From Myxococcales bacterium (GTDB lineage Bacteria > Myxococcota_A > UBA9042 > PHBI01 > JAAZYN01), in assembly GCA_014239625.1 (NCBI GenBank), contig JAAZYN010000001.1, forward strand, positions 1-31,869: a stretch of DNA of 31,869 nt, written 5' to 3'. Position numbers and translations under genes: made by a program. Shown piece by piece: positions 1-26,156 of the stretch (position 1 is its first letter; each line of letters opens with the position of its first letter). Under the pieces are notes generated by a model. It was not told where the DNA came from. It worked only from the letters and a program-made list of their open reading frames with translations, and searched no databases.

Positions 1-26
1 GACAGCCGCTGGAGCCTACGCAGCGG

Positions 27-3000
27 TTGGTCGGGATCATCGCGTCTGACGCGCTCCCTGCCGGCGAGAGCGGCATCCAGGTCGACCCCGAATACCTCGC
101 GACGGCGGACATTCGAGACCTCGACCGGCCGTCCCCGGTGGAGGGCGCCCCAGCCATTCAGCGGCAGGTTGAAGGCTTCGAGCGCGTGCCTCGCGCCTAC
201 GACCCCACCAATCCAGACGACCGACCACTCACATCGGCGGACACGCTCGCGTACCGGGAGGACATTATCCGCGGTGGTCGAGCGAAGCGTTCGTCTGAGA
301 TGATGGCGCGCGGCACCAAGGCGGGGTTCGGCTCGATGGTCTACGGCACGTTGGCTGAGCGGGCCACCACCGTGTCGGCGGCGTTCAAGCAGTATGACGA
401 GATCGGCGGCACGATGCCGGACGGCACCGTCAAGCGCTCGCTCGCCTCGAAGATGGCCACCCCGGTGCTCGACCGGGTCGGCGAATGGGCACGGAAACGC
501 TATGTCGACAACCAAGCCGCCACGGCTCCTCCTGATCACATCGTCGGGGATATCCTTGACGACCCCCAGCTCCTTTCAGATCCCGACTGGTGGGCATACA
601 ACACTGGACAGATGGCTGCTTCGATTGCCGCCTTCGCCGCCCCGATGCGAGGAGTGGCGGCAGCGACCGGTGCGGTCATGCGGTACACCAGCCCGACCGC
701 GCAAGCCGTTGCCGGCCTGGCCGGTGGCACCGCAACGGAAGCGATGGTTGAGGGCTCACTCGCGTGGAACGACGCGATCGACCGGGGAGAGACCGAGGAG
801 ACGGCAGCAAAGGAAGCCGCCGAGGTCTACAAGCGAAACCTGGTCCTGATCGGCGCGACGGGTTCGGTGGGGTTCCTGCCGCGCTCGATGATTCCCGGCT
901 CGCTGGTCTCGGGTCGACTCGGGCGCGCGGCGGAGGCGACTCGTGGCGTGGTCTCGGAGTCGATACAGGAGGGTGGCCAGGAGGTCATCACCAACCTCGC
1001 GGCCGACCGCCCTGCCGGCGAGGGTGTGGCGACGTCGGCGCTGTTGGGTGGTCTGGCCGGCGGCGGCATGCAGGTCGGGTTCAACCGGCTCGACCAGGCG
1101 CGCGACAGCGCACGTCTCGACCGCGAGCAGGAGGCGGCGCGTCCGTGGGAGCGGGGCCAGACACCGGCTGAGCCACCGCCACCGGTCGACGTGGTCACGG
1201 CAAAAACCCAGCCAAGTGGTGGGGTTTCGCCCGAATTGCAGGAAAACGCTGCAATTGACAGCGAAACGGCGCGGAAAACTGTCGCAATTACCGAAAAACC
1301 GCCCGTAGCGACACGTTCTACAGGGCAGATATCGCCACCAGCTCCGAAGGGAGCGGGCGATACCGGGGGCGTGGTCAGGCCCGGCGAGGCAGAGGTCGAG
1401 CGCCCGCCCGACACGAGCCCCGTGCTGGCCGCGCCTCCGGTAACGCCCAAGAGAGAGCCCAAGAGCGTGCGTCCGCCACAGGTGGAGCCGTTCGACATCG
1501 AGAACGACGAGATAGCGGAGCTGGACCGCATCGAGCAAGAGCTGGAGACCGCACCCTTCCAGCCGAAGACCATCACGCCGCAGGACCGCTACGGCGAGGC
1601 CGACGTGTCGCCGCGCGAGGCTGGAGCGCCGGTCTACGACGACATCATCGGACTGTCTGGTGCGTTCCGTCACTACACGCGTGGCGACATCAGGGGAGCC
1701 ATCGCAGACCTGAAGGCCGGCAAGCGGTCGGTCGCGTCTGACCTGGTCATGGACGTCGTCCGGGGCCGGCGCAGCGGTGAGCGCGGATTGTCGAAGCCGA
1801 TCATTCCGCTCGACGAGGACATGGTCGAGCCTGAGCCCGACTGGGTCTCAGAGGAGCAAGCCGCGCCGCCGGTCACGCCAAAAGAGCCGTGGACGCCGAA
1901 GCCGTATGGGCAACAGGAGACCAAGGAGGAGACGGCGAAGCGGGTCGAGGATTCCAAGGCCATTCTCGCGCCGATGAAGGCGGCAGCGGAGCGTGGTCCG
2001 GGCGCGAAGGTCTACCAGGGGCGCGGAGCTGACCCGAAGGACGTCTACGGACCCGACGCCGTGCGCGAGGGTCGAGCGGTCCCACTGTTCGGGAAGGCGC
2101 AGTACTACGCCATCGAGGAGCGGGACGCCAGGACCTACGGCGAGGTCACGGAGCACGACGCGCCGCAGCTCAAGAACCCGTTGGTGCTCGACTCCGACCG
2201 GGCATGGCACGACCTACAGCGCGCCGCCGGCATCGACCTTGAGAAGTCAATGGCCACGGAGCCGGGGAACATTCCCGCGCTGACCGCGAAGCTCCAAGCG
2301 CACATCCGCAACCAGGGGCACGACGGCATCATCGTCGAGGCGGGGTGGGATGGTGACGTCAACGCGAAGGGCGAGGGCATCAAGCAGCTCCGGGGGAAGG
2401 TCGGTCACTCGCAGATCGTGGTATTCGAGGACGCCAAGAAGCCGGCCGCGCCGGTCGCGACGAAGGCATACCAGGGGTCTGGAACGCTTAGGCGCTACAT
2501 TCAAGGCGCCGATCGCGGTCAAAGCAAGAGCTGGGAGGAAATCGTCGACCAGGTACGCGGTGAGGGTTCTGGTTTCTCTGAAAGCCAGATCAGGCGGGCG
2601 ATCATCGAGCTGGACGCGGACGGAGAGATCGCCACGCCGGGGAAGAAGACGCCAGCCGAAGAGGCCGGGCTCGACTTGGGCGAGCGCACGGAGCTACCGG
2701 TCTCGTGGACGTCGGCTTTTCTGTTGGGACCAGAGGCCAGGGCGAAGACGCTACGCGAGGCGACGCACAGCGGTATTGAGAGCGAGTACGCCGCGTTCGT
2801 GGCGCAGCGTGGCCGGCTAGAGCTGGAGGCCGAGAGCGCCACAGGCCCAGCGCGTAACGACATCGCCGACCAGCTCGGCATGGTCAACGGGTACCTCGAA
2901 GATGTGCAGGCGGAGCGCGCTCGACGTAACGACCCCGCGTACGACACGAACGACAAGGGAGAGCAGCAGGGTCGCCTGCCGGGCGCAGTGGGCGACGTGC

Positions 3001-6000
3001 GAGAGCAGGACGTCGTCACGCCACAGGTGGTCTCGGACGACGATGTGCCGTTTGGGCTCACGCCACCAGTCGGCAAGAAGACCGAGGTCGAGGACGGTCT
3101 ATTTGGCGGGCTGAGCGCGGAGTATCAGAAGGCGCTCGAACGAGCCAACGCGGAGAGCGCGCGGCACGACAAGGTGGTCAAGCAGTATCGAGCCCAGGAG
3201 GTCGACGACGACACGTTCATCGCGTCCAAGGCACGGCTCGATGCTGCGGACCAGGCGTTCGACCTAGCGGCCGAGAAAGAAGCAGAGCGCACCAATGAGG
3301 CGCCATCGAAGCCGGCCGCGCCTGTCACGCCCAAGGCGGTTGAACCATCCCTAGATGACAAGAGCCGAAGGGCGGCGTTGGAGAACCTCGACAGGGTCCA
3401 GCGCGACCCGGAAGGATCAAGCACCAAGGATCTGCTGCGAGCCGCTGGTGTGCTGTCTCACCAAATAGCAAGCCTGAGCCGCAAAGGAGAGAACCCTGAT
3501 CGCGTCCGGTCGCTGAAAGTTGACATGGATCACTTCACCGCAATAGTCGGTGAAAGGTCTAAGGTGGCGCGTAAGCCAGCGCCCCCGGTGAAGCCAGTCG
3601 AGCAACCGGCAGCAACGGCGCCCGCAGGGGACCAACCGCCACCAACGGGCGCCGCGATCGAGCGCCTGAAGAAGCACGGCATCAGGGTCAACGAGACGAC
3701 AACGAAGAACGGCACGCCGGTCTGGGAGCTGACCGGCAAGACGTTCGACCACAAGGCGGCGATCAAAGCCGCAGGAGGTCGCTGGTATGGCCCGAAGAAA
3801 GCCTGGTCCATCTACGACGCGAGCAAGCTCACCGACCTCGTCGCCGCGCTCGACGGAGGAGACGCAACTGGAAGCGGCGCTCAGGACGACACCGGGTCTG
3901 GCGACAACACTGATGAGGACGCGCGCATCAAGCAGCTCCGACGAGACGAGGACGGACGAGCCGACGCCCGACTCTCTGGTAGCGAGCTTGCGGACCTTGT
4001 CGACGCCGAGACGCAACGGCTGATTCGACTCGGGCTCAACGTCGGCATGCCGGCGCATGTGGTCGACGAGCAGATCGAGGACATCGGCGGCATCGTCACC
4101 GCGTTCGAGAACGATCGCCCGATGTTCCTCCTGGCGAGCGAGGCCGGCACCGGGAAGACGTACGTGCTGGGCGGCGCCATTCGCGAGCTGGCGAAGCGCG
4201 GGCACACCAACGTGACCTACGTCACGCTCAACCAGGACCTCATCACGCAGATCAAGCGCGACCTGGCCGACTACGGCATCGACCACGTTCAGTTCGCGAC
4301 CTACTCGGAGCTGAGCAGCGGGCGGAGCCGTATCAGCGTCGAGGACGGTGTCCTGATGTTCGACGAGATGCACTCCGTCAAGAACGTGGAGAGCGCGCGA
4401 GGCAAGGCCGGCCAGAAGCTCATGGAGCAGGCCCGGCTCACGGTCATGGCCAGCGCCACGCCATTCGAGAACCCGGTGCAGGCGCAGTACCTCGCGGCCA
4501 CCGGCATCTTTGGCGGCACCGACATCGACAGCATGCGTGAGCGGTTCACCGACTGGGTGAAAGCCTACGGCGCCAGCATCCGCCGCATCCGCATTCAGAC
4601 ACCCTACGGCGAGAAAGAGATCGAGATTCCCTACTGGCAGGGTGGCAAAAAGGAAGACGGCGCCGCCGCGCGCCAGTGGTTCGTCAAACAGGGCATCTTC
4701 CATCAGCGCACCAAGCAGCTCGGCAAGGACGCCGTCGACAGCACGTTCCAGTCGGTCACGGTCACGAGCGAGTGGAACGAGCGGTATGACGCCGTCGAGG
4801 CCGTCTACGCCGGGGCCATGAACGAGTGGCAGAACGACCAGGGCAAGCCGCTGGACGCGAAGGTCCACGCGATGATTGCGATGCACCGGGTCAACGCCAT
4901 CAAGCGCATCCTCGAAGCCTCGAAAGTGCAAGACGGAATCCGCCTCGCAAAGCAAGAACTCTCCGATGGAAAAGCCGTGGTGTTGTTCACCGAGACCAAG
5001 GCCGATCGCGAGATGGGGCGGTTTCGGGAGTCAGGCGCCAAGGCCAGCTCACCGCTCTACGGATACCCAGAGATTCAGCAGCGCATCGCAGAGTGGGAGC
5101 AGGAAGCGGAGATCGCTCGTCGCAACTTCGAGCGTCCGCCGAGACGTCCGTTCAGCGAGGCCATCGAGACCATCGCGAAGCACTACCACGAGAGCGGCAC
5201 GCACTTCGAGCTGCCGTCTGTCGCCAGTGACATCGTCGCCGGCCTGGGCGGTCGGTCGAAGGTGGCCATCTACAACGGCTCCGTGAGCAACGCCGCCGCG
5301 ACCAAGAACAAAGCCGACTTCCTCGAAGGTCGGAAGCGCGTCATCATCGCGACGATGGCCAAGGGTGGCACCGGGCTGTCACTCCATGACACCACAGGCG
5401 AGCGGCCGACCACGCAGATCAACATCAACCTGCCGTGGGTGGCCACACAGGTCGACCAGGTCAGCGGTCGAGTGGCGCGCTACGGGATGCGCTCGCACGC
5501 CGACATCATGTGGGTCTTCGCGAAGAACATTCCGTTCGAGCGCGAGCTGTCGGGTCGCGTCGGTCGGCGGATGCGGGACATGGGCGCCGTGGTCAAGGGT
5601 GTCGAGAGCGCCGCCGCCAAGGTGCTCGCAGACGACTGGAACATGGAGGACGAGAAGGTCGACGTCTCTGGCGAGGGCACGACCATCAGCACCGAGGACG
5701 AGGGCGACATCTACGCGCAGGCCGACCGGCGCCAGGCGCAAGACAAGGGTGGGCGCGCGAGAGCGGCCGACACGAGCGGCGACTTCTTCCCGACCCCATA
5801 CCGGCTCGCCGCGCTCATGACGCGGATCTCGGGCGTGCGCGAGGGTCACGTTGTGCTCGAACCGTCTGTCGGGTCAGGGCGGCTGCTGACGTTCCTGCCG
5901 GACGGTGTCGTGCTCACCAAGGTCGAGCAACGGGGCGACCTCGCAGCCAAGCAGGACGCCACGCAGGGTGATTTCCTCGAGCTGGCGTCTGGGCTGGGCG

Positions 6001-9000
6001 AGTTCGACACCATCCTGATGAACCCGCCGTTCAGCAAGAGCCTGGACGCGGCCCACGTCATGCGAGCCGCGGACCTCCTCACGCCGGGCGGGCGCCTGGT
6101 CGCGGTGATGGGTGAGGGCGTCTTCTTCCGCCAGCAGAAGAAAGACGCCGCGTTCCGCGACTGGCTCGATGACCGTGGCGCCACCGTGGTGACGCTGCCG
6201 GACAACGCGTTCAAGACGAGCGGCACGGGTGTCAAGACGCGCCTGGTTGTCATCGACGAGACCGCGTCACCGGGCCGGCTCGATATCAATATGGCCGACC
6301 TCGACGCCGACGAGCTCGCGCGGGTCGAATCCTCGGTGCCGTCGCGCGAAAGCCTCCGCCAAGTGGCGCCGCAGAGCGGAGAGGCGCTCCCGTGGGACGG
6401 CCCGTCAGCCACCACAGACGGCTCACAGTCCAACCTGCCGGTCACAGCAAAGGGAGAGGACCAGCCGGACAGCGGCGGCGGTCGCAAGGTTCCTGTCACG
6501 CCGAAGCGGGAGACCGCGCGCAACTGGCCAGGCCGTTCACCGAGTGCGACGACGCCAGCTCACGGGCTGACCGGCACCGCGATCGCGCAGCGCATCGCCA
6601 AGATGATCGGGGACCTCCCGATCGCGGTGGGCAAGGCTGGCCGGTCCCGTGCGATTTTCAAGCACACCGGCACCATCCGCGAGGCGGTCGCTGAAGACTT
6701 CTTCGCGGAGCTGCACGAGCTGGGACACGCGCTCGACCTGATCGTGATGGGGTGGAGCGCAGCGCACAACCGAGACGCCATCGCGGAGGAGCTAAAGGTC
6801 GTAGGCGCGCCGACGTCGATGCCGTCCTACTCGGTCAAGACTATCCGTCGCGAGGGTGTCGCCGAGTACACACGTCGGTGGCTCATGGAGCCGGATGGGG
6901 TCCGCATCGAGGCGCCATTATTCACGCTGGTGTTCGAGGCGTTCATCCAGTCCGGCACACCACTGGCCAAGACGCTCGCGCAGGCGCAGGAGGAGACGCA
7001 ATATCTCTTAAACCTGAGCCCCGAGGAGACGCTCGGTCGCGGCATCGACAGCACGGGTGGACCTGGTCCAGTCGAGCGCCTCAACGTGCTGCTGCGCGCG
7101 GCTGACGACGACCCTCGCACGGGCTTCGACCGCATGTCGGTCGCGTGGAACGACGACGCGGCATCGCTGAAGCGCGTGACGTCTGCGATGCGAAACGGAG
7201 AGCCCGGTGACCCGGCGGTGGACGCCTACGCGCAGCACCGATTCGTGAACGGGTCGAGCGGGCTGGCCAAGGGGTTCCTAAAGTATGGCGTCCGCGACGA
7301 GAGCGGCAAGAAGATCGGGCCTGGTCTCTATGAGGCGCTGAAGCCGGTCTGGTCGGAGATTTACACCGTCGTTGGGAAGGCCGGCAAGCTCCAGAAGTAT
7401 CTCGTCGCGCGTCGAGCGGCTCGCATGGTGCAGCTCGGCAAGGAGAGCGGGCGCACCAAGTCAGAGATCACGGCCGGGCTGCTCCTGGGCGAGATGGACC
7501 CACGCCTGAAGGTTGCCGGCGAGGGCATCGACGCGTTCCGCAAGGCGATGCTTGACTGGTCGGTTCGGAATCATCTGATTTCCCCCGAGGTTCGCGCCAA
7601 GTTCGACAAGACATGGGGCGGCTACTACGTGCCCTGGAACAAGGTGCGCGACCTGGCGCTCCGAGTGTCGAGCGGCAAAGGCGGCGGGCGCAACTCCAGA
7701 GTGCCGTTTGGTCGTTTCTTTAGGGGCGACGGACGCATCCGCGACCCGCTCATGAGCATCATCACCAACACGTTCGAGCAGGTCCGTGCCGGGATGGACA
7801 ATAAGTGGAAGCTCGCGCTCGTCGACCAGGCGACGAAGACCGAACACCGCGGCGTGAAGGGGGAGAGCGAGCAGATCGAAACGCTGGGTGGTCGGTTTCT
7901 CGATCGCATCGTGGCCGACAAGCACGAAGTGTTCGTCAACTTCGAGCGGATCTCCGACGAGATATTCGAGGCAGCGCGCAAGCAGGGCTATATCCCCGAG
8001 TTAGAGGCCGGATGGATGTCGTCGAAGGAGGAGCTTCTCAAGGGGCACGCGTCGTACTGGGTGCCGAACACGCTGGCGATCGGCGGGAAGCACTACATGA
8101 CGGTGCTCCGCCACGGTGAGCGCGAGTGGTACGAGGTTCACGACCAAGGGCTCTGGGATCTGATTGAGTCGGGGTCCGGCCAGGCGGCGGCGGTCTACCT
8201 CTCCGTGCTGCGGGCGCCGGCACAGCTCCTTCGCCGGATGGCGACCTCGACGCTCGGATTCATTCAGCGCAACGTGATTCGCGACTTCCTCTCAGCGGTC
8301 AACTACTCGAAGGGCGTCTACACGCCGCTCGATTCCATCAACGGGTTGATGTCCGTGCTGAAGGAGGATGAGAACTGGCAACTGTTTCTCACGTCAGGCG
8401 CGCACGGCGGCACCGTCGTATCGCAAGATAGAAACTACCTCCGGGGGGAGATTCGCGGGCTGGGCAAGACGCGCATCAGGCGCTACGCCGAGATGATTGT
8501 CCGCAACCCGTTCGAGGGCATGCGCGCGTTGTCGGAACTGTCGGAGCACACCACCCGCGTGGGTGAGTTCAAGAAGGTGCGCGAGATGGAGCTGTCCGGC
8601 GGCGCCACCGACGAGGAGGGGCTCTCCCGCGCGGCCTGGGCGGCTCGCGAAGTGACGCAAGACTTCTCGAAGCAGGGCAGCTACGCGCGGGAGATCAACC
8701 AGCTCGTGCCATTCTTCGCCGCGCGCATCGGTGGCGTGACCCGGCTCGCCGAGGAGGTCAAGCGGTCCCCGATTCAGATCACCCGACGCGCGCTGATGAC
8801 GATCATCATGCCGTCGATGTTCTTGTGGTATCTGAACCGCGACGACGACGAGTATGAGGAGATCCCCGGCTGGGCGAAACGCGCCTACACGCACATCCCC
8901 GTTCACCAGGCGCTCCGCGACCGTGGGTGGGGCTCGCACGTCTGGATTCCGCGCGCCTTCGAGTTCGGTGAGATATCGAACGTGCTAGAGGCTGTGCTCG

Positions 9001-9875
9001 ACGCGTCGTTCAAGGGCGTGTCCAGCGACGAAGTGCTCGAACGTCTCCCGCTGCAAAACCGCGACGACGCAATGGCGTTCGTGTTGGACATGGTCCCGCA
9101 GGCCGTGCTGCCGCTGATGGAGGTCAGGACGAACTACGACCTGTTCCGCAAGCGCAACATCGTCAGCCCGTTCGACGAGGGCCTAGACGAGTCGATGAAG
9201 TACAGCCGGTGGACGTCTCAGACCGCGCGCCACCTGGGCAAACTTCTTGAGATGTCACCAGCCGTCATCGACCACCTGATCTACGGCTACACCGCTGGCA
9301 TGGGACGCGGCGTGGTGAAGATGGGCGACGAGGTACTCGGCCAGCTCGGGCTCTCACCGCAGGGGCCGGCGCTCACGTTGCGCGATGTGCCGGTTGTCGG
9401 CACGCTGCTGAAGGGAGACAGCCTGTCGTCGTCCTCGGCGTCGACCAATGCGTTCTACCGTGAGGTCGAGCGGCTCGACGGCGCCGCCGCCAGCATCCGC
9501 CGGCTGGTCAAGGCGAAGAACTACACAGGGGCTCAGAAGCGTGCCGAGAAAGACGGGCTGGAGATCAGCATCCGGGGCGGCGGGTTCGGGTCGGTCGAGG
9601 AGCGGCTCACAGCCGGCGCCCAGGTCGTCGTGATGAGCGATCGACTGCGTGCCCTACGCAAAGCTCAGCAGGGCATGCGCGACCTCCGTAGCGGGCTCGA
9701 CAGGGCGCTCGGCGACGAGACGCTCAGCCGCGAGGAGAAGTGGACGCATCTGAACCAGGTGTCGGTAGCGCTCGTTAACCTCAGTCGGGTGTCGCTGGGT
9801 AAGGAGCCGCTCGAACGGACGGACCGCGAGAAGGCTCGGACGCTGCCGGTCACCCCGGTCGCGAGTGGGCAGTAG
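27..9875 (+). CDS. Giant polyvalent (DarB-like/LPD38) protein, probable virion-ejected protein; 5'-truncated
   Basis: The frame is open from base 3 to the TTG at 27, so the true start is upstream. Motifs: ART-like YQG...GHDGII...QIVVF (about 2004-2430); Walker A EAGTGKT (4140-4160); DEMH (4362-4373); SAT motif III; GGTGLSLH...QVSGRVAR (Strawberry-notch-like helicase C); methyltransferase EPSVGSG and NPPF (6021-6032); HELGH (6714-6728) plus REGVAE; C-terminal LPD38-like REVTQDFSKQG...VPFF...SPAVIDHLIYGYTAG. Confidence 0.9.
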   Translation: MVGIIASDALPAGESGIQVDPEYLATADIRDLDRPSPVEGAPAIQRQVEGFERVPRAYDPTNPDDRPLTSADTLAYREDIIRGGRAKRSSEMMARGTKAGFGSMVYGTLAERATTVSAAFKQYDEIGGTMPDGTVKRSLASKMATPVLDRVGEWARKRYVDNQAATAPPDHIVGDILDDPQLLSDPDWWAYNTGQMAASIAAFAAPMRGVAAATGAVMRYTSPTAQAVAGLAGGTATEAMVEGSLAWNDAIDRGETEETAAKEAAEVYKRNLVLIGATGSVGFLPRSMIPGSLVSGRLGRAAEATRGVVSESIQEGGQEVITNLAADRPAGEGVATSALLGGLAGGGMQVGFNRLDQARDSARLDREQEAARPWERGQTPAEPPPPVDVVTAKTQPSGGVSPELQENAAIDSETARKTVAITEKPPVATRSTGQISPPAPKGAGDTGGVVRPGEAEVERPPDTSPVLAAPPVTPKREPKSVRPPQVEPFDIENDEIAELDRIEQELETAPFQPKTITPQDRYGEADVSPREAGAPVYDDIIGLSGAFRHYTRGDIRGAIADLKAGKRSVASDLVMDVVRGRRSGERGLSKPIIPLDEDMVEPEPDWVSEEQAAPPVTPKEPWTPKPYGQQETKEETAKRVEDSKAILAPMKAAAERGPGAKVYQGRGADPKDVYGPDAVREGRAVPLFGKAQYYAIEERDARTYGEVTEHDAPQLKNPLVLDSDRAWHDLQRAAGIDLEKSMATEPGNIPALTAKLQAHIRNQGHDGIIVEAGWDGDVNAKGEGIKQLRGKVGHSQIVVFEDAKKPAAPVATKAYQGSGTLRRYIQGADRGQSKSWEEIVDQVRGEGSGFSESQIRRAIIELDADGEIATPGKKTPAEEAGLDLGERTELPVSWTSAFLLGPEARAKTLREATHSGIESEYAAFVAQRGRLELEAESATGPARNDIADQLGMVNGYLEDVQAERARRNDPAYDTNDKGEQQGRLPGAVGDVREQDVVTPQVVSDDDVPFGLTPPVGKKTEVEDGLFGGLSAEYQKALERANAESARHDKVVKQYRAQEVDDDTFIASKARLDAADQAFDLAAEKEAERTNEAPSKPAAPVTPKAVEPSLDDKSRRAALENLDRVQRDPEGSSTKDLLRAAGVLSHQIASLSRKGENPDRVRSLKVDMDHFTAIVGERSKVARKPAPPVKPVEQPAATAPAGDQPPPTGAAIERLKKHGIRVNETTTKNGTPVWELTGKTFDHKAAIKAAGGRWYGPKKAWSIYDASKLTDLVAALDGGDATGSGAQDDTGSGDNTDEDARIKQLRRDEDGRADARLSGSELADLVDAETQRLIRLGLNVGMPAHVVDEQIEDIGGIVTAFENDRPMFLLASEAGTGKTYVLGGAIRELAKRGHTNVTYVTLNQDLITQIKRDLADYGIDHVQFATYSELSSGRSRISVEDGVLMFDEMHSVKNVESARGKAGQKLMEQARLTVMASATPFENPVQAQYLAATGIFGGTDIDSMRERFTDWVKAYGASIRRIRIQTPYGEKEIEIPYWQGGKKEDGAAARQWFVKQGIFHQRTKQLGKDAVDSTFQSVTVTSEWNERYDAVEAVYAGAMNEWQNDQGKPLDAKVHAMIAMHRVNAIKRILEASKVQDGIRLAKQELSDGKAVVLFTETKADREMGRFRESGAKASSPLYGYPEIQQRIAEWEQEAEIARRNFERPPRRPFSEAIETIAKHYHESGTHFELPSVASDIVAGLGGRSKVAIYNGSVSNAAATKNKADFLEGRKRVIIATMAKGGTGLSLHDTTGERPTTQININLPWVATQVDQVSGRVARYGMRSHADIMWVFAKNIPFERELSGRVGRRMRDMGAVVKGVESAAAKVLADDWNMEDEKVDVSGEGTTISTEDEGDIYAQADRRQAQDKGGRARAADTSGDFFPTPYRLAALMTRISGVREGHVVLEPSVGSGRLLTFLPDGVVLTKVEQRGDLAAKQDATQGDFLELASGLGEFDTILMNPPFSKSLDAAHVMRAADLLTPGGRLVAVMGEGVFFRQQKKDAAFRDWLDDRGATVVTLPDNAFKTSGTGVKTRLVVIDETASPGRLDINMADLDADELARVESSVPSRESLRQVAPQSGEALPWDGPSATTDGSQSNLPVTAKGEDQPDSGGGRKVPVTPKRETARNWPGRSPSATTPAHGLTGTAIAQRIAKMIGDLPIAVGKAGRSRAIFKHTGTIREAVAEDFFAELHELGHALDLIVMGWSAAHNRDAIAEELKVVGAPTSMPSYSVKTIRREGVAEYTRRWLMEPDGVRIEAPLFTLVFEAFIQSGTPLAKTLAQAQEETQYLLNLSPEETLGRGIDSTGGPGPVERLNVLLRAADDDPRTGFDRMSVAWNDDAASLKRVTSAMRNGEPGDPAVDAYAQHRFVNGSSGLAKGFLKYGVRDESGKKIGPGLYEALKPVWSEIYTVVGKAGKLQKYLVARRAARMVQLGKESGRTKSEITAGLLLGEMDPRLKVAGEGIDAFRKAMLDWSVRNHLISPEVRAKFDKTWGGYYVPWNKVRDLALRVSSGKGGGRNSRVPFGRFFRGDGRIRDPLMSIITNTFEQVRAGMDNKWKLALVDQATKTEHRGVKGESEQIETLGGRFLDRIVADKHEVFVNFERISDEIFEAARKQGYIPELEAGWMSSKEELLKGHASYWVPNTLAIGGKHYMTVLRHGEREWYEVHDQGLWDLIESGSGQAAAVYLSVLRAPAQLLRRMATSTLGFIQRNVIRDFLSAVNYSKGVYTPLDSINGLMSVLKEDENWQLFLTSGAHGGTVVSQDRNYLRGEIRGLGKTRIRRYAEMIVRNPFEGMRALSELSEHTTRVGEFKKVREMELSGGATDEEGLSRAAWAAREVTQDFSKQGSYAREINQLVPFFAARIGGVTRLAEEVKRSPIQITRRALMTIIMPSMFLWYLNRDDDEYEEIPGWAKRAYTHIPVHQALRDRGWGSHVWIPRAFEFGEISNVLEAVLDASFKGVSSDEVLERLPLQNRDDAMAFVLDMVPQAVLPLMEVRTNYDLFRKRNIVSPFDEGLDESMKYSRWTSQTARHLGKLLEMSPAVIDHLIYGYTAGMGRGVVKMGDEVLGQLGLSPQGPALTLRDVPVVGTLLKGDSLSSSSASTNAFYREVERLDGAAASIRRLVKAKNYTGAQKRAEKDGLEISIRGGGFGSVEERLTAGAQVVVMSDRLRALRKAQQGMRDLRSGLDRALGDETLSREEKWTHLNQVSVALVNLSRVSLGKEPLERTDREKARTLPVTPVASGQ

Positions 9876-9980
9876 GTGACGGCGTGACGCCAAGTGACGG
9901 GGTCTTGTGAGTTCTTCCTCCTGAGAGTCAGACAGAGGAAAAGCACGCAAGTCGGTGTCACCTACCGTCACGCCGTCACC
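9875..9980. repeat. 106-bp ungapped imperfect inverted repeat (axis 9927/9928)
   Basis: 9875-9889 GGTGACGGCGTGACG is the exact reverse complement of 9966-9980. Further paired blocks on the same axis are 9894-9898/9957-9961, 9904-9907/9948-9951 and 9915-9920/9935-9940. Hand count: 35 Watson-Crick pairs over 46 arm positions, plus 3 G.T pairs. Confidence 0.9.
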
Positions 9981-9991
9981 CCGGTCAAGGT

Positions 9992-10007
9992 TGGCCACAG
10001 GTGGCCA
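9992..10007. promoter_or_regulatory. Operator-like palindrome TGGCCAC-AG-GTGGCCA upstream of the lysis cassette
   Basis: Perfect 7-bp inverted repeat with a 2-nt spacer, ending 12 nt before the ATG at 10020. Function is inferred only. Confidence 0.35.
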
Positions 10008-10019
10008 GGATCTTAGCCG

Positions 10020-10370
10020 ATGGACATTTTCATGCAGCTCGTGCTCGGTGGCCTTGTCACGCTATCCCTCACAGCGATTGGCTACGTGGTGAAGACGAAA
10101 ACGGAGGCAATCGTGGCCCAGATGGTCCGAATCGAAACGGCAGTCATTGCGAGCAGCCAGGGTGTCCAGCACGCGCTACGTGTTGCCGCCGCCACCCAGC
10201 TCCTCATGGTCAAGCAGCTCCACGCGCACGACCTCACCGTGACCGGCGTGAACGAGGTATTCGCAGGAAAGGATCTCCCCGAGACCGTTCTCGACCTGAA
10301 ACGCAAGTGTGAGCAGCTCCAAGACGGCATCGAGGATGTGCGTCGGGAGTTGCTGGAGGCTCCGCCATGA
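10020..10370 (+). CDS. Membrane-anchored protein of the lysis region (N-terminal TM helix, C-terminal coiled coil)
   Basis: Hydrophobic LVLGGLVTLSLTAIGYVV. AGGA RBS. ATGA-coupled to the next gene. Confidence 0.7.
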   Translation: MDIFMQLVLGGLVTLSLTAIGYVVKTKTEAIVAQMVRIETAVIASSQGVQHALRVAAATQLLMVKQLHAHDLTVTGVNEVFAGKDLPETVLDLKRKCEQLQDGIEDVRRELLEAPP

Positions 10371-10567
10371 AGGTTTTAGAGTTCCTGTGGAAGAAGATCA
10401 ACGAGCACCCCGGAAAGTTCCAAGCCCTGGTAGTGGGTGTCCTGGCCAATCTCAGCTCGTGGGGGGTCAACCTCAACGGCGAGCAGGTTGCGGGCGCGAT
10501 CACGCTCACGGGACTGGCTATCGCCTTTCTCATCACCGACACGCCTGTTCAAAAAAAGGAAGAGTAA
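10367..10567 (+). CDS. Putative holin (66 aa, two hydrophobic segments, charged C-tail)
   Basis: GGAGG RBS; two TM-like segments; QKKEE tail; lies directly before the endolysin. Confidence 0.6.
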   Translation: MKVLEFLWKKINEHPGKFQALVVGVLANLSSWGVNLNGEQVAGAITLTGLAIAFLITDTPVQKKEE

Positions 10568-10599
10568 ATCGGCACGAGCTTTGCTCAGTCTGTTAGGGT

Positions 10600-11145
10600 A
10601 TGAGCCCATCACTGAATAAATCCGCCGCGCTGCTCGGTTCTGATCGCATGACTGGTCCTGGCGAACATCTCACCTGGTCGGAGATGGCGTGCTGGAATCG
10701 CCTGGTTCAGCCTCGGGTGCTCATTGCCCGTTACCCAGACGAGTGGCGACAGACTCGCGCGATACGGCTGGCCTACGCGTTCGAGGTCATCCGCTGGGCC
10801 TGCCAGCAGATGCCTGGTCGCTCGACGCTGGCGCCGTCGTCACACGCCATCTCGGTGCGCTCGGCGTACCGCACGGAGGGGTACCAGGCGCAGCTCAAGG
10901 CGGCAGGCTACGCGACCGCCGTCAAGAGCCAACACCTACAAGGCCGGGCGCTCGACCTGGCGCCGCCGGCCGGTATGCCGACCGCGCAGTTCTACGAGGT
11001 CATCCACAACCTCGCGACCACCACCATCGAGGAGATCGCCGGCATCGGCGAATACTCGACGTTCGTTCACGTCGACACCCGACCAAACCGGGCTAGGCTG
11101 GCCACATGGCACCGGACGACCCAAGACGCCCAACGCGCCGCATGA
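10600..11145 (+). CDS. Endolysin, peptidase M15 (Zn D-Ala-D-Ala peptidase fold)
   Basis: SAYR...SQHLQGRALD...GIGEY..FVHVDTR motif set typical of M15. The start could instead be the downstream ATG at 10648. Confidence 0.85.
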   Translation: MSPSLNKSAALLGSDRMTGPGEHLTWSEMACWNRLVQPRVLIARYPDEWRQTRAIRLAYAFEVIRWACQQMPGRSTLAPSSHAISVRSAYRTEGYQAQLKAAGYATAVKSQHLQGRALDLAPPAGMPTAQFYEVIHNLATTTIEEIAGIGEYSTFVHVDTRPNRARLATWHRTTQDAQRAA

Positions 11146-11492
11146 TCAGTGAGCTGGCGGACGACTTCCGCCGCGCGCACCCCGGTGCAGATGCCGGGCT
11201 GAATGCCTGGAGGTCCGTGCAGCGGCCGGTGCGCTCAAGGCACACGCGTGAGGTCGTCCCGCCGCCGGTCTCGCATGCCGGCACCGTCGTCTCGCTCATG
11301 GGTCACACGCACGTCCAGTCCGCTCCGCCCCCGGAGCGTGCGCGCTCGGTCACGCCCATCGGCTCCGACCAGGCCGTCTCGCTCGACCGTGGACCGGCGC
11401 CTGGTGAGGTCCGCTGCTCCGACTGCGGCGCCTGGCGGAACGCCGTCCTGTCCATCCGCTGCCCGCGCTGCGGTCTCGCCGAGACCCGATAG
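11142..11492 (+). CDS. Hypothetical protein with C-terminal zinc ribbon (116 aa)
   Basis: ATGA overlap with the endolysin stop gives the start at 11142. CSDCG...CPRCG. Confidence 0.65.
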   Translation: MISELADDFRRAHPGADAGLNAWRSVQRPVRSRHTREVVPPPVSHAGTVVSLMGHTHVQSAPPPERARSVTPIGSDQAVSLDRGPAPGEVRCSDCGAWRNAVLSIRCPRCGLAETR

Positions 11493-11497
11493 GTCAA

Positions 11498-11560
11498 CAG
11501 GTTCGTTAGATCCAGGGAACCTGAAGCGCTGTCACTTTCTGCCACTTTCTGCCAGTTTCG
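11498..11560. promoter_or_regulatory. Inverted repeat plus three 10-bp head-to-tail repeats upstream of the HTH gene
   Basis: CAGGTTC (11498-11504) / GAACCTG (11517-11523); then GTCACTTTCT GCCACTTTCT GCCAGTTTCG (11531-11560), ending 4 nt before the ATG. Confidence 0.55.
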
Positions 11561-13140: not shown

Positions 13141-13581
13141 ATGACAGACAAGAAAAGCCTACCACAAGAGTCTCGCCACGACGCCTTCTTTGAGCGCAAG
13201 CTCCGCGACTCTGAGGCCGGCGTCAAGGTACACCTGGTCATCATGGAGCGCTACGCGCGCACCACGGCGTCAGTGACCAATCCGCAGCAGGTTGCGGCGG
13301 CAGCATTCGCGATTCGGTATCCCTCGCGCTGGGGCGCCATCGCCCAGGCCGTCGCGGACGACACCCTCATCGAGCAGCTCGCCGCGCGCTACATGCTCGG
13401 CACGACGCTGGAGAACGTCAAGCCGAAGGTGCGGGCGAGCATCTTGCAAGCGTTCCACACAGCACAGCGCCGATACCTCGACGTGTTCACGGGGGATTGG
13501 CCGACCACGCCTGCTCAGCAGGTTCACATCCTTGGAGGAGAGACAGATGAACGACCAGGAGCCACCAGTGGAAACCGTTGA
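13141..13581 (+). CDS. Hypothetical protein (146 aa)
   Basis: AGGAGG RBS at about 13125-13130 selects ATG 13141 rather than 13051, whose first codons are the terminator hairpin. Confidence 0.65.
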   Translation: MTDKKSLPQESRHDAFFERKLRDSEAGVKVHLVIMERYARTTASVTNPQQVAAAAFAIRYPSRWGAIAQAVADDTLIEQLAARYMLGTTLENVKPKVRASILQAFHTAQRRYLDVFTGDWPTTPAQQVHILGGETDERPGATSGNR

Positions 13582-14860
13582 CGCGATGGAGGTCGCAGTC
13601 GAGCCCAGAGAGCGCGCGGCGCTCGTGGTGCAGCCATCAGCCGACGTGGGGCTGACGAAGGACCCCGACGAACTGCTCGACGACGCGGGCAAGGCGGCGA
13701 AGGCGCTAATGGGTGTGATGACCAAGCAGGACGACAAGGTCATGATGGGCGGCAAGCAGTACTTGGAATACAACCACTGGCAGACGGTGGGGCACTTCTA
13801 CGGCGTGACCGCGCGCATCGTTCGCACGCAGTTTGTTCATCTCGCGCTAGGCGACGAGGTTATCACCGGCTGGGAGGCGACCGCCGACGCCCTGGCGCCT
13901 GATGGCCGCGTGCTGTCGAGCGCTGACGCCATGTGCATGACCGACGAGGAGAAGTGGGGCGCCCGTCCGAAGTACGCCTGGTGCTACTTGCTGAAGGGCA
14001 TGCCGGCCGAGCAGGACAGCTCGTACGTCGAGGAGGACCCCGGCCCCGACAAGATCACCTGGCCCGAGACGCGGCCGGCTGATGGCTCGAAGAACCGGCC
14101 CATCAAGAAGCGCATGCTCATCGGAACCGAAAAGGTGCCCACGTTCCAGCTCCGCTCGATGGCGCAGACCAGAGCATGCGCGAAGGCGCTCCGTAACGTG
14201 CTGGGCTGGGTCGCGGTCATGGCCGGCTATAGCGCCACGCCGGCCGAGGAGTTGTCCGCCAGCCAGCGCGAATCGCCTGGGCGAATTGGCCCTGAGTCTG
14301 GACCGACCAGGCCCGCATCTGCGCCGGCAGCTCGCGCGACGTCGCCCACCGAGATCGCGGGCTACGAGCTCACCGAGACATCGGGTGTCCTGCTCGACGT
14401 GGAGACCGGCGCGCAGTTCACACTGCCGGCCGGCGCCTCGCTCATCACCAAGCTGCTGATTGCCGGCGGCAAGCGCCCCAACCGCATCACGTTCACGAAG
14501 TTCAAGGACGCCAGCTCCGTCGAGCTGGTGAGCATCGAGACGACTGTCTGGCCGTGGAAGAAGGAGGGGGACTACGACTGGACGAAGGTGTGTCAGCCGT
14601 TGCACGAGAATCGCACGCCCGTGAAGGTCACCACCAAGAAAGCCGAGAACGGCCAGTACGTCAACTGGCTGCTCACCAGCGTGGCGCCCTGGTCGGGCAC
14701 GGAGTCGATGACCTCGACGTCGGAGCTGGCAGGAGCCACGAAGCTGCCGCCGGTCGAGAAGGTCGCGCAGCCGACTGCTGATGAGGTATTCGGCGGCTCG
14801 CCGGTTGAGCGATTCCCAGACGGCGCCCCCAAGGTTTTGGAGGACGACATTCCATTCTGA
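13547..14860 (+). CDS. Putative single-strand annealing recombinase (Rad52/Sak-like fold) with extra C-terminal domain and SSB-like DDIPF tail
   Basis: GGAGGAG RBS. GKQY..Y.HW...G, GWEATA, ADAMC..DE.KW and SMAQTRACAKALR...GYSATPAEE match a common phage annealing-protein pattern. The protein ends in EDDIPF. Confidence 0.65.
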   Translation: MNDQEPPVETVDAMEVAVEPRERAALVVQPSADVGLTKDPDELLDDAGKAAKALMGVMTKQDDKVMMGGKQYLEYNHWQTVGHFYGVTARIVRTQFVHLALGDEVITGWEATADALAPDGRVLSSADAMCMTDEEKWGARPKYAWCYLLKGMPAEQDSSYVEEDPGPDKITWPETRPADGSKNRPIKKRMLIGTEKVPTFQLRSMAQTRACAKALRNVLGWVAVMAGYSATPAEELSASQRESPGRIGPESGPTRPASAPAARATSPTEIAGYELTETSGVLLDVETGAQFTLPAGASLITKLLIAGGKRPNRITFTKFKDASSVELVSIETTVWPWKKEGDYDWTKVCQPLHENRTPVKVTTKKAENGQYVNWLLTSVAPWSGTESMTSTSELAGATKLPPVEKVAQPTADEVFGGSPVERFPDGAPKVLEDDIPF

Positions 14861-18351: not shown

Positions 18352-18650
18352 CCGCTCAGCGGTGGGAGGAGTGGCCGCTCCGCAAGTATCAGGACACCCC
18401 GGAGACGCACGTTTCGGTCGACGCGGTCCGCCTCCTGCTCCAGCTCGAGGAATTGGAAATCCCTTGCACCATCATCGCCGGCAGTTTCGTCGCGCACCGC
18501 GACCCACCCACTGAGCTGCAACCATTGTTCGGCCGGCGCGGCATGAAGCGCGAGTTGAAGCTGCTCGTGCGCTACTGCGACCAGGCGCCCGACGTCGCGA
18601 CGATGGAGAAGGTCTGGGCCTGGCTCGCTGAAGGAGGTCAATCGGTATGA
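18348..18650 (+). CDS. Hypothetical protein (100 aa)
   Basis: GTGA overlap on the 5' side and ATGA on the 3' side; globular composition. Confidence 0.6.
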   Translation: MTAQRWEEWPLRKYQDTPETHVSVDAVRLLLQLEELEIPCTIIAGSFVAHRDPPTELQPLFGRRGMKRELKLLVRYCDQAPDVATMEKVWAWLAEGGQSV

Positions 18651-18988
18651 CACAACCGCATTTCAACGGTCCAGCGTACGACCCGCGAGTAGACCTTGAC
18701 CGGTTGACGAAGCAGATTGGGCGCGTCTACTCGTCAATGACAAGCGGGGTGCCTGGTCAGCGACGACCGGGTGAGTGGGGTCGCTGCTGGCTCACGCTGG
18801 GCGAGCTGGCGGCGTCAACGGGTGACCCTGAGAGCAGCGTGAGCGCGCAACTCCGCCACCTTCGCAAAGCGCGCTTTGGCGGGTTCATCGTGTCCAGGCG
18901 GCATCGCGGCAAACGCTCGTCCGGGCTCTGGGAGTACCAGCTCAACGACCCACCGGAGCCACAGCCCGATCCGGGGAGGTTGTTTTGA
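18647..18988 (+). CDS. Winged helix-turn-helix DNA-binding protein
   Basis: AAGGAGGT RBS; WLTLGELAASTGDPESSVSAQLRHLRK..FGG..V.RR.RG....LWEY. Confidence 0.7.
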   Translation: MTQPHFNGPAYDPRVDLDRLTKQIGRVYSSMTSGVPGQRRPGEWGRCWLTLGELAASTGDPESSVSAQLRHLRKARFGGFIVSRRHRGKRSSGLWEYQLNDPPEPQPDPGRLF

Positions 18989-20464: not shown

Positions 20465-21922
20465 ATGGCAGACGATTTGACGTATCACCAGTTCTTGGGC
20501 GAGTCGCACGACGTGGCGATCGCCTACGAGGAGACCAACGGGCGCCGGCCGTCGTCGACCGACTTCTACCACAACGCGTGGAAGCGCGCGGTCGAGGGGC
20601 GCCCGCACGAGGAGGTCATCGGGCTCATCCGTGGGACCTGGCCAGAGGAGCCGACACCAGTGCCGACACCAGAGCCGTCGTTGGTGCTGCCGGTCATATC
20701 GGGCAACCGCTTCCTCCGGTTTGTTCACGACCCGACGCTCGTCTACGACTGGCGCGAGGTCTCAGGGTTTGGCCTCTACCACCTGTCGCTCGCTGACCGC
20801 TACGAAGACCTCCATGCGTGGCTCAGGAGCATCAAGCTCTACGCCAACAGCGTGCGGGTCATGTTGGCGGTCGAGGGTGGGCCTGGCGACTTCTGGGGCG
20901 ACTACGCGACGAGCTGGAAGAATCCGTTGTTCTACGCGCGCCTGGTCGAGTTCGCTCAGATCCTCGACTCTCACGGTATGCGGATGCACGCCTGCCTCAT
21001 CGGCGCCACCGACTCGTTCGGCGCCATTCCCAATTGGGACACGCGGGAGGACGTCGTCACCGTCAACCACGACGCGCAACAGCGCATGCGGGAGTACGTC
21101 TCGCAGACGGTGGGCACGCTCACGGACCACGTCGGGACCGGCATCATCCAGATCGCGAACGAGCCACATCAGATTGGTTTCGGCACTCACAACGAGGAGT
21201 TCCTCGCGGAGCTGGCCGGCATCGCCCACGCCATCGCGCCTAAGATCCCTATCAGCCTGGGCGACGGCGGTGAGTGGGACGGTCAGGGCGACCTGCCGAT
21301 GTCGACGGCGCCGTCCAACATTCACGGACACCACCCTCTGCGGATGCGCGAGCGCGACTACCACCGGGCCATCACGCGTCGAATCCATCACTTCAACATC
21401 GACCAGGGCGACATGCCGGTGATGCTCGACGAGGATCTCAACATGGGCGACCAGCTCAGCGGTGCGAGCGGGTCCGCGTCAACGGCGGTCGCCTTCGCGG
21501 CGGCGGTCATGGGTCGCATCAAGCGGCTCGCCGGCGGACACTTCCACATGCGCGAGGGGCTCAAGCCGATGCACCACTCCAACGGCGTCGGCGTGGACGA
21601 CCCGATCAACCAGCAAACCACCAACGCGCTCAACGCGTGGAATCATGGCCTCAACCTGGTCCCGATGGAAATCGAGGGCGAAGACTGCAACGCCGATAGC
21701 TGCGGTTCGGCAGGGCCGGTCGACCGTGGCCAGGTGCCGCCCACCGAGAAGCTTGAAGGGCACGACGGACCCATCCGTGTGTTCGGGCTGCGTGACACCA
21801 ACCTGGGCGGGTACTGGGGGCTGAGCATCGGCGAGCCCATCGGCTACAGGTTGCGCGGTGACTTCGAGACCGTCCACCTGGAGCAGTGGGGCGGCTGGCA
21901 GTCTCGTTTCATTCGCGCGTAG
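20465..21922 (+). CDS. Clan GH-A (GH5-like) glycoside-hydrolase-like protein with N-terminal helical domain and Pro/Thr linker
   Basis: GAGGGAG RBS; NSVRV strand; IANEP acid/base motif (Glu at 21161-21163); PVMLDE nucleophile-like motif 90 residues later (Glu at 21431-21433); EEPTPVPTPEP linker. Confidence 0.65.
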   Translation: MADDLTYHQFLGESHDVAIAYEETNGRRPSSTDFYHNAWKRAVEGRPHEEVIGLIRGTWPEEPTPVPTPEPSLVLPVISGNRFLRFVHDPTLVYDWREVSGFGLYHLSLADRYEDLHAWLRSIKLYANSVRVMLAVEGGPGDFWGDYATSWKNPLFYARLVEFAQILDSHGMRMHACLIGATDSFGAIPNWDTREDVVTVNHDAQQRMREYVSQTVGTLTDHVGTGIIQIANEPHQIGFGTHNEEFLAELAGIAHAIAPKIPISLGDGGEWDGQGDLPMSTAPSNIHGHHPLRMRERDYHRAITRRIHHFNIDQGDMPVMLDEDLNMGDQLSGASGSASTAVAFAAAVMGRIKRLAGGHFHMREGLKPMHHSNGVGVDDPINQQTTNALNAWNHGLNLVPMEIEGEDCNADSCGSAGPVDRGQVPPTEKLEGHDGPIRVFGLRDTNLGGYWGLSIGEPIGYRLRGDFETVHLEQWGGWQSRFIRA

Positions 21923-24462: not shown

Positions 24463-25092
24463 ATGAAATATATCGCTGGCGCCGGCACCCGAGACTGGAC
24501 CTCTCCGCCCTGGCCACCACAGGCCGACTGGCGATGGTGGCAGCTCCGGTCGCGGTTCACGCAGAAGATGGCGGTTCACGGCCTGGAGCTGCATGCGCCC
24601 TGGTCGGTGTTCGGTATGGACGTCCCTCCGTGGAGCTGTGAGCTGTCTGGTACGTTCTTCGCCGGCAAGGATCTGCGCGCCTGGTGGCGCGGCGCTGCTT
24701 CGCTGGTGGCCGCGCTGCTGGAGCTGCCGCCCGAGGACCGCAACATGCTGCTCCACTCGCACTGTGGCAACGCCGGCATCCTGGCCGCGTTTCTGATAGA
24801 GGCCAACGGCGAGACGGTGCGGTCGCTGACGACGGTCTGCACGCCGAGGCGGCGCGAGCTGGACCAGTATTCAACCGCGTTGAAGTGCCGGCGCCGGCAG
24901 ATCACCACGAAGGAGATCATCGGGAACCACATGCAGTGGATGGGCGGTCGCTTTTCGAGCTGGTCGATGCCGGACGGGTGGGACAACTACGTGGCGAAGC
25001 GGAAGATTGGCCACAGCGAGCTACTCCGCGACGTCGACCGGTTCCCTGAAGACTTCGAGCACGGAATCGTCGAGTTCATGAAAGCCGCATAG
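24463..25092 (+). CDS. Alpha/beta-hydrolase (lipase/esterase-like)
   Basis: Nucleophile elbow LLHSHCGNAG (Ser at 24757-24759); LTTVCTP strand; late IGHSEL His (25012-25014); purine-rich RBS before ATG 24463. Confidence 0.65.
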   Translation: MKYIAGAGTRDWTSPPWPPQADWRWWQLRSRFTQKMAVHGLELHAPWSVFGMDVPPWSCELSGTFFAGKDLRAWWRGAASLVAALLELPPEDRNMLLHSHCGNAGILAAFLIEANGETVRSLTTVCTPRRRELDQYSTALKCRRRQITTKEIIGNHMQWMGGRFSSWSMPDGWDNYVAKRKIGHSELLRDVDRFPEDFEHGIVEFMKAA

Positions 25093-25100
25093 GGGGGCAT

Positions 25101-25343
25101 ATGCCGAAACCGGGACAGCACAGCGACGAGGAGATCAACAACTGGTTCACGTACCACCCGCCGAACGGGCCAGGGGTCGTGGATCGCTACGCGCGGATTC
25201 GGGCGTCAGCTAAGCGCCTCGCGCTGACCATCCGCGACAACTGCCCAGCCGGCGCTGATCGGTCGGCGGCGATGCGACATCTGCGCGAGGCGGTTATGAC
25301 GGCCAACGCCGGCATCGCGTGCGCGAGTGAAGAGGGGGCGTAG
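25101..25343 (+). CDS. Acb2/Tad1-like helical-hairpin protein, candidate anti-defence nucleotide sponge
   Basis: 80 aa; NWFTYHPP...RY.RIR..AK.LA..I.DNCP....RS.AM.HLREAVM.ANA.IA pattern; AGGGGG RBS. Confidence 0.65.
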   Translation: MPKPGQHSDEEINNWFTYHPPNGPGVVDRYARIRASAKRLALTIRDNCPAGADRSAAMRHLREAVMTANAGIACASEEGA

Positions 25344-25576
25344 TGATTTCAAGGCGCGGATTATTCAAGGCGCTGGCCTACGTTGATGGCCTGGTCAGTA
25401 AAACGCCAGCTCCGCCCCCAGTAGCCCACCTTTTTCTGGGGTCGGCGGGGATACACGCGACTGTGCGGGCTGCGATGGCGTGGCCCGGCTCCAGAACGCC
25501 GTCGACTCCAGCGATGTGCTGGGGCGGTGGTCAGCATTTCCCGTCGATATTGAAGGAGCCGTATGACCAGCGGTAG
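25343..25576 (+). CDS. Hypothetical protein with SRRGLFK N-terminus
   Basis: GTG overlaps the previous TAG; GAGGGGG RBS; low-complexity remainder. Confidence 0.4.
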   Translation: MISRRGLFKALAYVDGLVSKTPAPPPVAHLFLGSAGIHATVRAAMAWPGSRTPSTPAMCWGGGQHFPSILKEPYDQR

Positions 25577-26130: not shown

Positions 26131-26156
26131 CCTGGGGACAAAGGCGCAATGCGAGC

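Follow-up and report, generated by a model that had tools for sequence, protein, structure and literature searches.

Origins of the staphylococcal pathogenicity islands (SaPI) consist of 6-12 penta- or hexanucleotide iterons located directly downstream of rep, with half of the iterons on each side of an AT-rich centre and in opposite orientation, and a self-loading helicase of superfamily 3 (SF3) or of the MCM-like type binds them through its C-terminal winged helix (PMC9371898; bioRxiv 10.64898/2026.10.17.759575). In the case of pRN1, a 100-bp stem-loop 3' of orf904, a gene encoding a PrimPol and an SF3 helicase together with a winged helix, is necessary for replication, acts independently of its position and is sufficient together with the rep operon; BPP-1-like phages of Bordetella have a similar stem-loop after their replication gene (PMC4234260). 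The authors of that work compared the system with the alpha protein of P4, a Toprim-SF3 helicase-winged helix protein which reads octamer iterons, and with the T antigen of SV40 (PMC4234260). Here we describe a 106-bp palindrome with mirrored GTGAC boxes found in contig JAAZYN010000001.1 of a Myxococcales bacterium. The window analyzed was this entire contig (31,869 nt, 31.9 kb) from a 68%-complete metagenome-assembled genome (MAG) of 5.3 Mb; it is part of a phage, and its genes lie on the + strand.

We observed that the arrangement of boxes recurs in many other phages. It is very probable that the palindrome belongs to this GTGAC-iteron family and that the family is a protein-bound DNA element linked to primase-helicases of the SF3 type. 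The best-supported inference from these comparisons is that the family members are replication origins. As a DNA-level element of this widespread phage family, the copy in the window may serve as, or derive from, an iteron origin of the SaPI, P4 or pRN1 type, a reading in which we place about half of our confidence; it is uncertain whether this particular copy fires as an origin.

Results

Structure of the element

A sequence-only reading of the window had pointed to this palindrome, and its box coordinates, spacings, pairing and 12-nt repeat were all reproduced, as was the absence of a U-tract. With a repeat finder we detected two ungapped arms of 46 nt each (9875-9920 and 9935-9980), which are 76% complementary (35/46 positions paired) and enclose an unpaired apex of 14 nt (9921-9934). 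GTGAC starts at positions 9876, 9884 and 9894 and is mirrored by GTCAC at 9957, 9967 and 9975, with spacings of 8 and 10 nt on the left and 10 and 8 nt on the right. The left set of three direct iterons occupies 9876-9898 (with flanks AGGTGACGGC, GCGTGACGCC and AAGTGACGGG) and the right set, its mirror image, 9957-9979. The centre of the element (9899-9956) has the pyrimidine tract TTCTTCCTCCT opposite the purine tract AGAGGAAAAG; it is partly self-complementary and is a candidate unwinding region. Its central 46 nt contain 48% G+C, compared with about 65% for the contig. The apex lacks palindromic symmetry, and pairing in the inner arm is imperfect.

When all positions of the window were scanned with loops of 0-30 nt, pairing of 35/46 was reached nowhere else, and in 30 shuffles of the window the best pairing was only 26-29 of 46. 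Folding of the RNA gave -64.5 kcal/mol for the + strand (z = -4.45 against shuffles) and a slightly better value for the - strand (-64.7 kcal/mol, z = -5.56).

The 12-nt direct repeat GTCACCCCGGTC is found on the + strand at both ends of the element. Its left copy (9849-9860) encodes VTPV of the C-terminal LPVTPV of the preceding protein and can also be read as a seventh box, namely an inverted GTCAC located 27 nt before the first GTGAC. The right copy (9975-9986), at an in-frame distance of 126 nt from the left one, overlaps the outermost right box. The window therefore has six exact GTGAC/GTCAC boxes and a seventh at 9849, forming units of approximately 8-10 nt when flanks are included.

The palindrome lies at a junction of structural and lysis genes, as the sequence-only reading had described. 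Its first base is the G of the TAG stop codon (9873-9875) of a giant polyvalent protein gene, the 3' part of which covers 3-9875 on the + strand (>3290 aa, open at the 5' end of the contig). The sequence directly after the 106-nt hairpin is CCCGGTCAAGG. The first gene behind it (10020-10370, +) is preceded by an AGGA Shine-Dalgarno sequence at 10007-10010 and encodes a protein of 116 aa with a hydrophobic N-terminus of the membrane type and without a match to any family; its place ahead of the endolysin gene suggests that it is holin-like. The endolysin, an M15 peptidase, is encoded at 10600-11145 on the + strand (Pfam Peptidase_M15_3 and M15_2; PHROG 894).

We did not observe any terminator-like site at 9000-11500, and there is no T-run after the hairpin. 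A scan for sigma-70-type promoters gave none in or beside the element, and an Rfam scan of the whole window gave no match.

A 435-nt contig of public run X4 covers 9663-10097 with zero differences from the window, which gives no indication of an assembly chimera. The depth of read contigs at the palindrome was only 2-4x, and the runs (X1-X4), which come from marine samples, may be the source of the MAG itself; they are uninformative on DNA ends and replication coverage. Separately, a 230-nt Logan contig (run X1, record 3) consists of 9753-9955 followed by 27 nt matching 9646-9672 and ends inside the right arm. This arrangement was not called as a joint and probably reflects faulty assembly of the repeat at low coverage.

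Related elements in other phages

We defined a strict pattern of 30 fixed bases, GTGAC-N3-GTGAC-N5-GTGAC followed by GTCAC-N5-GTCAC-N3-GTCAC. In 400 genomes of the host phylum (approximately 2.3 Gb) there was no match besides the window itself, while exact matches were found in 13 viral contigs of IMG/VR, in most of them also with a length of 106 bp. In 11 of these 13 contigs, a gene for a primase or primase-helicase had its stop codon at the element or no more than approximately 300 nt away (at most 70 nt in ten, about 300 nt in L029). The neighbour was a PrimPol/D5_N/DUF5906/Pox_D5 protein, that is of the PrimPol plus SF3 helicase build, in L019, L020, L021, L023, L025, L026 and L028, a VapE-like protein in L022 (identical to L031), L027 and L030, and a zinc-ribbon primase in L029. 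The VapE-like protein encoded beside the element of L027 is clearly homologous to SaPI1 Rep1 (PDB 7PDS, E = 1.9e-46).

A looser pattern, which required only the two outer boxes of each arm, retrieved more than 119 contigs from IMG/VR as well as cultured phages of Arthrobacter and Microbacterium. Using hidden Markov models built from the neighbours, we detected a D5/VapE-like open reading frame (ORF) in 44 of 121 such loci, and in 36 of these 44 its 3' end was located -120 to +400 nt from the element. Further adjoining genes encoded a Cch-type DUF927+HTH_56 helicase, two members of primase PHROGs and a DUF5906 protein. Judging from the G+C content of the contigs and from the cultured carriers, GTGAC elements apparently occur in tailed phages of high-GC hosts.

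Two loci showed overlaps with the neighbouring gene. The D5-like ORF of L026 reads through the element (4262-4367), giving a frame of 861 aa, and in L028 the TGA stop codon of the helicase gene lies inside the first GTGAC box of the element (1302-1407). Thus, origins of this family, if they are such, can overlap the end of the initiator gene.

The boxes behave as iterons. They are extended in a lineage-specific manner (for example GTGTGACGG, CAGTGACGCA, CCGTGACCC and CGGTGACACC), and the identity of box flanks was 0.63 for boxes on one arm, 0.64 for boxes on opposite arms that are not partners, 0.76 for mirror partners and 0.32 for boxes of different lineages. Therefore the symmetry is mostly repetition of one lineage-specific unit of 8-10 nt. 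Such repetition would be a requirement of a phage-specific DNA-binding protein; base pairing alone would not require it. Spacer columns of the family were still paired in 80% of cases in register and in approximately 30% when shifted, with several pair types per column.

The sequence-only reading had offered a long RNA hairpin processed by RNase III as one option and had taken the G.T pairs as an argument for it. This was not borne out. Family mismatches comprised 49 G.T and 54 A.C, with no strand bias and no preference for G.T, and the arm mismatches in the window are A.C, not G.U, on the sense strand. Family centres were AT-richer than their genomes or contained (CG)n, (TA)n or (GA)n tracts. 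The lineage-specific boxes, the composition of the centres and the lack of G.T bias together argue for a DNA site for a phage-specific protein and not for an RNA hairpin. The same reading had listed an origin among possible protein-bound symmetric sites, and this option is the favoured one, since the 3+3 architecture recurs beside primase-helicase genes and the boxes act as lineage-specific iterons.

As to the tracts, among L027, L030, L074, L076, L079, L085, L116 and L127 several centres contained alternating (CG)n or CGCGCAC tracts and others (GA)n/(CT)n or (TA)n, all of which are prone to form non-B DNA under supercoiling. The polarity of centre pyrimidines relative to gene direction was weak and inconsistent outside the serine-recombinase group.

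This group is a subfamily of approximately 25 loci with the arm layout GTGAC-N3-GTGAC-N9-GTCAC or with 8/9-bp spacing. Its elements adjoin a large serine recombinase gene or unknown genes, occur in two copies per contig of 35-49 kb and match cultured Arthrobacter phages of cluster AZ and Microbacterium phages. Elements of about 100 bp with the arm layout GTGAC-N3-GTGAC-N9-GTCAC were located at 21699-21799 and 36584-36685 in Arthrobacter phage Cassia (L143) and at 21040-21143 and 39919-40021 in Microbacterium phage Barnstormer (L150). Each of these phages has exactly two copies in the same syntenic places, one at the junction of late/lysis genes and the exonuclease gene and one just after the serine integrase gene, flanking a DNA-metabolism block of 15-19 kb. 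The block holds a Toprim-D5_N-DUF5906 primase/helicase, which in Cassia is gp37, and the same was observed in 5/5 two-copy contigs of IMG/VR.

Megablast and blastn searches against GenBank phages gave nothing for the window element and its surroundings, nor for L019. A text search of the literature returned no paper on GTGAC iterons in phages, and two papers on cluster AZ do not describe GTGAC elements.

Probable insertion at the end of the giant gene

Deletion in silico of 9849-9974 (126 nt, in frame) extends the giant ORF to a TAG at 10014-10016, 4 nt before the ATG at 10020. The extended ORF would end in LPVTPVKVGHRWPGS before its stop codon, compared with PVTPVASGQ at present; therefore the present C-terminus of the giant protein may have been created by an insertion. 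The window element most likely arose by insertion of 114 nt at the 3' end of the giant gene, accompanied by a duplication of 12 nt.

The suggestion that the palindrome is a MITE-like (miniature inverted-repeat transposable element) insertion held in part. The inserted look was confirmed, both by the 12-nt repeat around the 126-nt unit and by relatives with only 10-41 nt at this place. A second copy and duplications in the family were not found. In the 5.3-Mb MAG the search for further copies, which had also been proposed, gave only chance matches of 14-17 nt, and across the element family flanking target duplications showed no excess over the control. Moreover, the left copy of the 12-nt repeat is displaced by 15 nt, and the right copy shares bases with the last box. 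Because the family shows neither target duplications nor multi-copy spread within a genome, its mobility has no known mechanism.

Other genes of the contig

On the + strand, the order of genes is: the giant polyvalent gene, the palindrome, small ORFs, the M15 endolysin gene, approximately 10 kb of early genes, a helix-turn-helix (HTH) gene, and genes for the large terminase (TerL), a P22-like portal and head proteins. The giant protein gave Pfam matches to ResIII/AAA_34 helicase, N6_Mtase (weak) and LPD38. The early region is fully visible and showed only a single-strand annealing protein-like lead, a GroES-like protein, a metallopeptidase and HTH proteins.

Several further features of the contig were recorded. 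The first ~85 codons of ORF 13292-14860 look out-of-frame, and its true start is probably the ATG at 13547 (MNDQEPP...); for the resulting product of 437 aa we obtained only language-model leads to viral annealing proteins of the RecT/Sak type. A small protein encoded at 18647-18988, with weak winged-helix matches (HTH_36 and ArsR-type HTH_5) below Pfam cut-offs, is one of few candidate sequence-specific DNA binders in the early region. Upstream of the portal gene, a segment of approximately 1 kb (25092-26157) has no long + strand ORF; it contains a 17-nt inverted repeat, 88% complementary, at 25211-25227 and 25280-25296.

Discussion

The element consists of two inverted sets of three GTGAC iterons, spaced by 8/10 bp (approximately one helical turn), around an easier-melting centre of ~58 bp. 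In most family members whose context can be read, a self-loading primase-helicase gene of the SF3 type ends right before the element, in the same manner as at the origins of SaPI, P4 and pRN1. In an origin of this kind, the C-terminal winged-helix domains of the initiator helicase would bind the iterons of each arm, and one helicase hexamer would be loaded on each side. The centre would then melt, possibly aided by extrusion of the palindrome as a hairpin or cruciform, and priming would follow.

Several observations weigh against an origin in the window, and some against the reading for the family. D5_N, VapE-like and DUF5906 domains were found neither in the contig nor in the 68%-complete MAG, the phage genome itself being incomplete. 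No window ORF was matched by profiles made from the C-terminal domains of D5-like and VapE-like neighbours, ORFs between 10 and 22 kb of the contig had no P-loop, and no binding protein for the element was identified in the contig. The window and the 120 element-bearing loci have no protein in common. By synteny with relatives, the unseen part of the phage probably consists of structural genes, and therefore the SF3-type initiator may be truly missing; an exact-protein look-up found no longer assembly of the same phage on record.

Relatives of the phage point in the same direction. We searched viral, metagenome and genome contigs and a set of 5.8 billion proteins with the C-terminus of the giant protein and found relatives of only 28-39% identity; among them, P0123 and P0124 (36-37%) are giant LPD38 proteins encoded after podovirus structural genes. 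None of the relatives found in this way has a palindrome or a gap after the giant gene. In those of 36-39% identity the stop codon is followed by the next gene after 10-41 nt, and this gene encodes an endolysin in one of them; the window endolysin is homologous to the protein encoded directly after the giant gene in relative L147. The sequence-only reading had named two outcomes as speaking against it, an assembly chimera and relatives lacking symmetry at this junction; the first was not seen, and the relatives found lack the element at this place. TerL had no relatives in IMG/VR; those in the protein set (58-60% identity) came from assemblies of Acidobacteria (Vicinamibacterales) and had no GTGAC cluster within +/-10 kb of TerL. 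Within the family, copies of the strict architecture also occur in structural contexts, directly after the major head gene in L024 and near terminase genes in L111, and a DUF5906 gene is missing from three complete contigs that carry the looser pattern. Finally, copies of the AZ type are placed exactly at module boundaries, which would fit a transcriptional role too.

This last point leads to the main rival, which we consider rather unlikely: a module-boundary operator for a phage-encoded regulator, with boxes that flank a promoter or insulate operons and a palindrome that doubles as a bidirectional terminator. Every readable context is indeed a junction of gene modules on the same strand, i.e. 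giant gene and lysis genes in the window, major head gene and the next genes in L024, primase-helicase and late or packaging genes in L019, L027, L028 and L030, and, for the two copies of Cassia and Barnstormer, late/lysis genes with exonuclease and integrase with right-arm genes. Phages of cluster AZ encode a sigma-like HTH protein (bioRxiv 10.1101/2025.05.26.655371), and lineage-specific iterons would suit any phage-encoded DNA binder. However, the window element has no sigma-70-type promoter in it or beside it, and the centres of the family have (CG)n or (GA)n tracts instead of a conserved -10/-35-like motif. An operator would also leave unexplained why, in 36/44 loci with such a gene, the element adjoins the 3' end of an initiator gene, with four or more unrelated initiator families represented (D5-like, VapE-like, Cch-like, and zinc-ribbon or other primases). 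Coupling to initiator 3' ends is the mark of a cis site that is passed on along with its trans factor.

It is less probable still that the window copy is an orphan or relic, acquired from another phage or a satellite through recombination or a single insertion event and devoid of any role beyond incidental effects of a long palindrome. The short distances in relatives, the in-frame 126-nt unit bracketed by the repeat and the tidy junction left by its removal would all be expected then, as would the lack of a cognate helicase and of a protein common to other carriers. The flanks of the six window iterons are also less uniform than in most lineages. On the other side, all six boxes, both spacings and the length of the centre are intact, suggesting selection or a very recent arrival, and the family has neither target duplications nor multi-copy spread within a genome.

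We find it improbable, more so than the two preceding explanations, that the palindrome acts as a hairpin in the mRNA of the giant gene, be it a terminator lacking a U-tract, a 3' stabiliser or an RNase III site which uncouples expression of the lysis genes. The hairpin is very stable and would form in any transcript crossing the element; it begins where a very long gene stops, ahead of the lysis genes, and in L024 the element is found behind the major head gene, where strong RNA hairpins are common. Nevertheless, the features expected of such a structure (an Rfam family, a T-run, G.U favoured over A.C) are absent, the sense-strand mismatches in the window are A.C, and the antisense strand folds slightly better. 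A unit of 8-10 nt repeated within one arm has no rationale in RNA, and relatives manage with no such gap at the junction.

There is a slim chance that the element is an origin of the SF3-helicase type which lacks its own helicase, and either uses the primase-helicase of a co-resident satellite or prophage in trans or is a decoy titrating the initiator of a satellite. Either role would fit the position next to the gene of a giant injected anti-defence protein, and the decoy, if true, would be a weapon in the conflict between phages and satellites.

A telomere or recombination site, i.e. a protelomerase target or a crossover site of a site-specific recombinase, is largely refuted and essentially excluded, as the likeness to the N15 tos site (long dyad symmetry with flanking repeated boxes) and the placement of one subfamily directly behind a large serine recombinase gene are outweighed by a centre that is not a perfect palindrome, by the lack of a ResT/TelK protelomerase domain in the searched MAG and of a recombinase in the window, by the second copy of serine-integrase phages, which lies far from the integrase with a D5-like helicase between the copies, and by the independent contig that reads straight through the element. 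Two further candidates were rejected. For a cos or pac site, the distance to terminase genes varies from 0.7 to >12 kb and the AZ copies lie 20 kb from the genome ends; for attP, the centre matches nothing in the MAG and in most loci the element is not beside an integrase gene.

Origins of most tailed phages are unknown and not predictable from sequence. If the GTGAC elements are iteron origins, mirrored GTGAC iterons with 8-10-bp spacing and a melt-prone centre would provide a searchable signature for annotating origins in phages with D5-, VapE- and Cch-type helicases. The cultured Arthrobacter and Microbacterium carriers make this hypothesis testable at the bench. The window copy is away from an initiator gene and looks freshly inserted, and one may ask whether origins can be passed between phages as cassettes of their own.

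Comparison with known origins

Compared with the SaPI origins (Rep/PriRep), the GTGAC elements have the same short iterons (5-7 nt, at least six), two opposed sets and an AT-richer centre. The window element itself falls within the SaPI range of 6-12 penta- to heptanucleotide iterons, arranged as two opposed sets around an AT-rich centre. Most family elements are also located directly downstream of a primase-helicase gene, in one case of a SaPI1 Rep1 homologue. They differ in being shorter (approximately 100-116 bp compared with ~300 bp), in being true palindromes with fixed 8/10-bp spacing and in residing in tailed phages. The window element differs also in having no adjacent or detectable rep gene; the gene upstream encodes an SF2-type helicase, a methylase and LPD38, with no D5 or VapE domain.

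With the stem-loops of pRN1, BPP-1 and BIP-1 the family shares a size of ~100 bp, a large loop, a location 3' of a PrimPol-SF3 gene and conservation of structure but not of sequence. The size and the conserved symmetry are present in the window as well, and the gene context is that of the family and not of the window copy, which does not lie beside such a gene. The pRN1 stem-loop was described by its authors as having no iterons, and when we checked the published BIP-1 stem-loop it contained no GTGAC boxes. The GTGAC family, being compact and palindromic, would thus be a variant, not described as such, of a known kind of origin.

The ori and crr sites of P4 are alike in having iterons that are read by the C-terminal winged helix of the alpha primase-helicase. 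These two iteron clusters lie some kilobases apart around the alpha gene, as the two copies do in AZ-type phages, and the complement (GGTGAACA) of the P4 iteron TGTTCACC resembles GGTGAC. The P4 sites are not known to form one compact palindrome, unlike the GTGAC elements.

The core origin of SV40 and other polyomaviruses has inverted GAGGC pentanucleotides for the large T antigen, two SF3 hexamers of which are placed head-to-head beside an easily melted region. It belongs to a eukaryotic virus and its boxes differ in sequence and number, so that the likeness is one of logic only. With respect to this logic, the GTGAC family would offer small symmetric substrates for structural work on the head-to-head loading of two SF3 hexamers.

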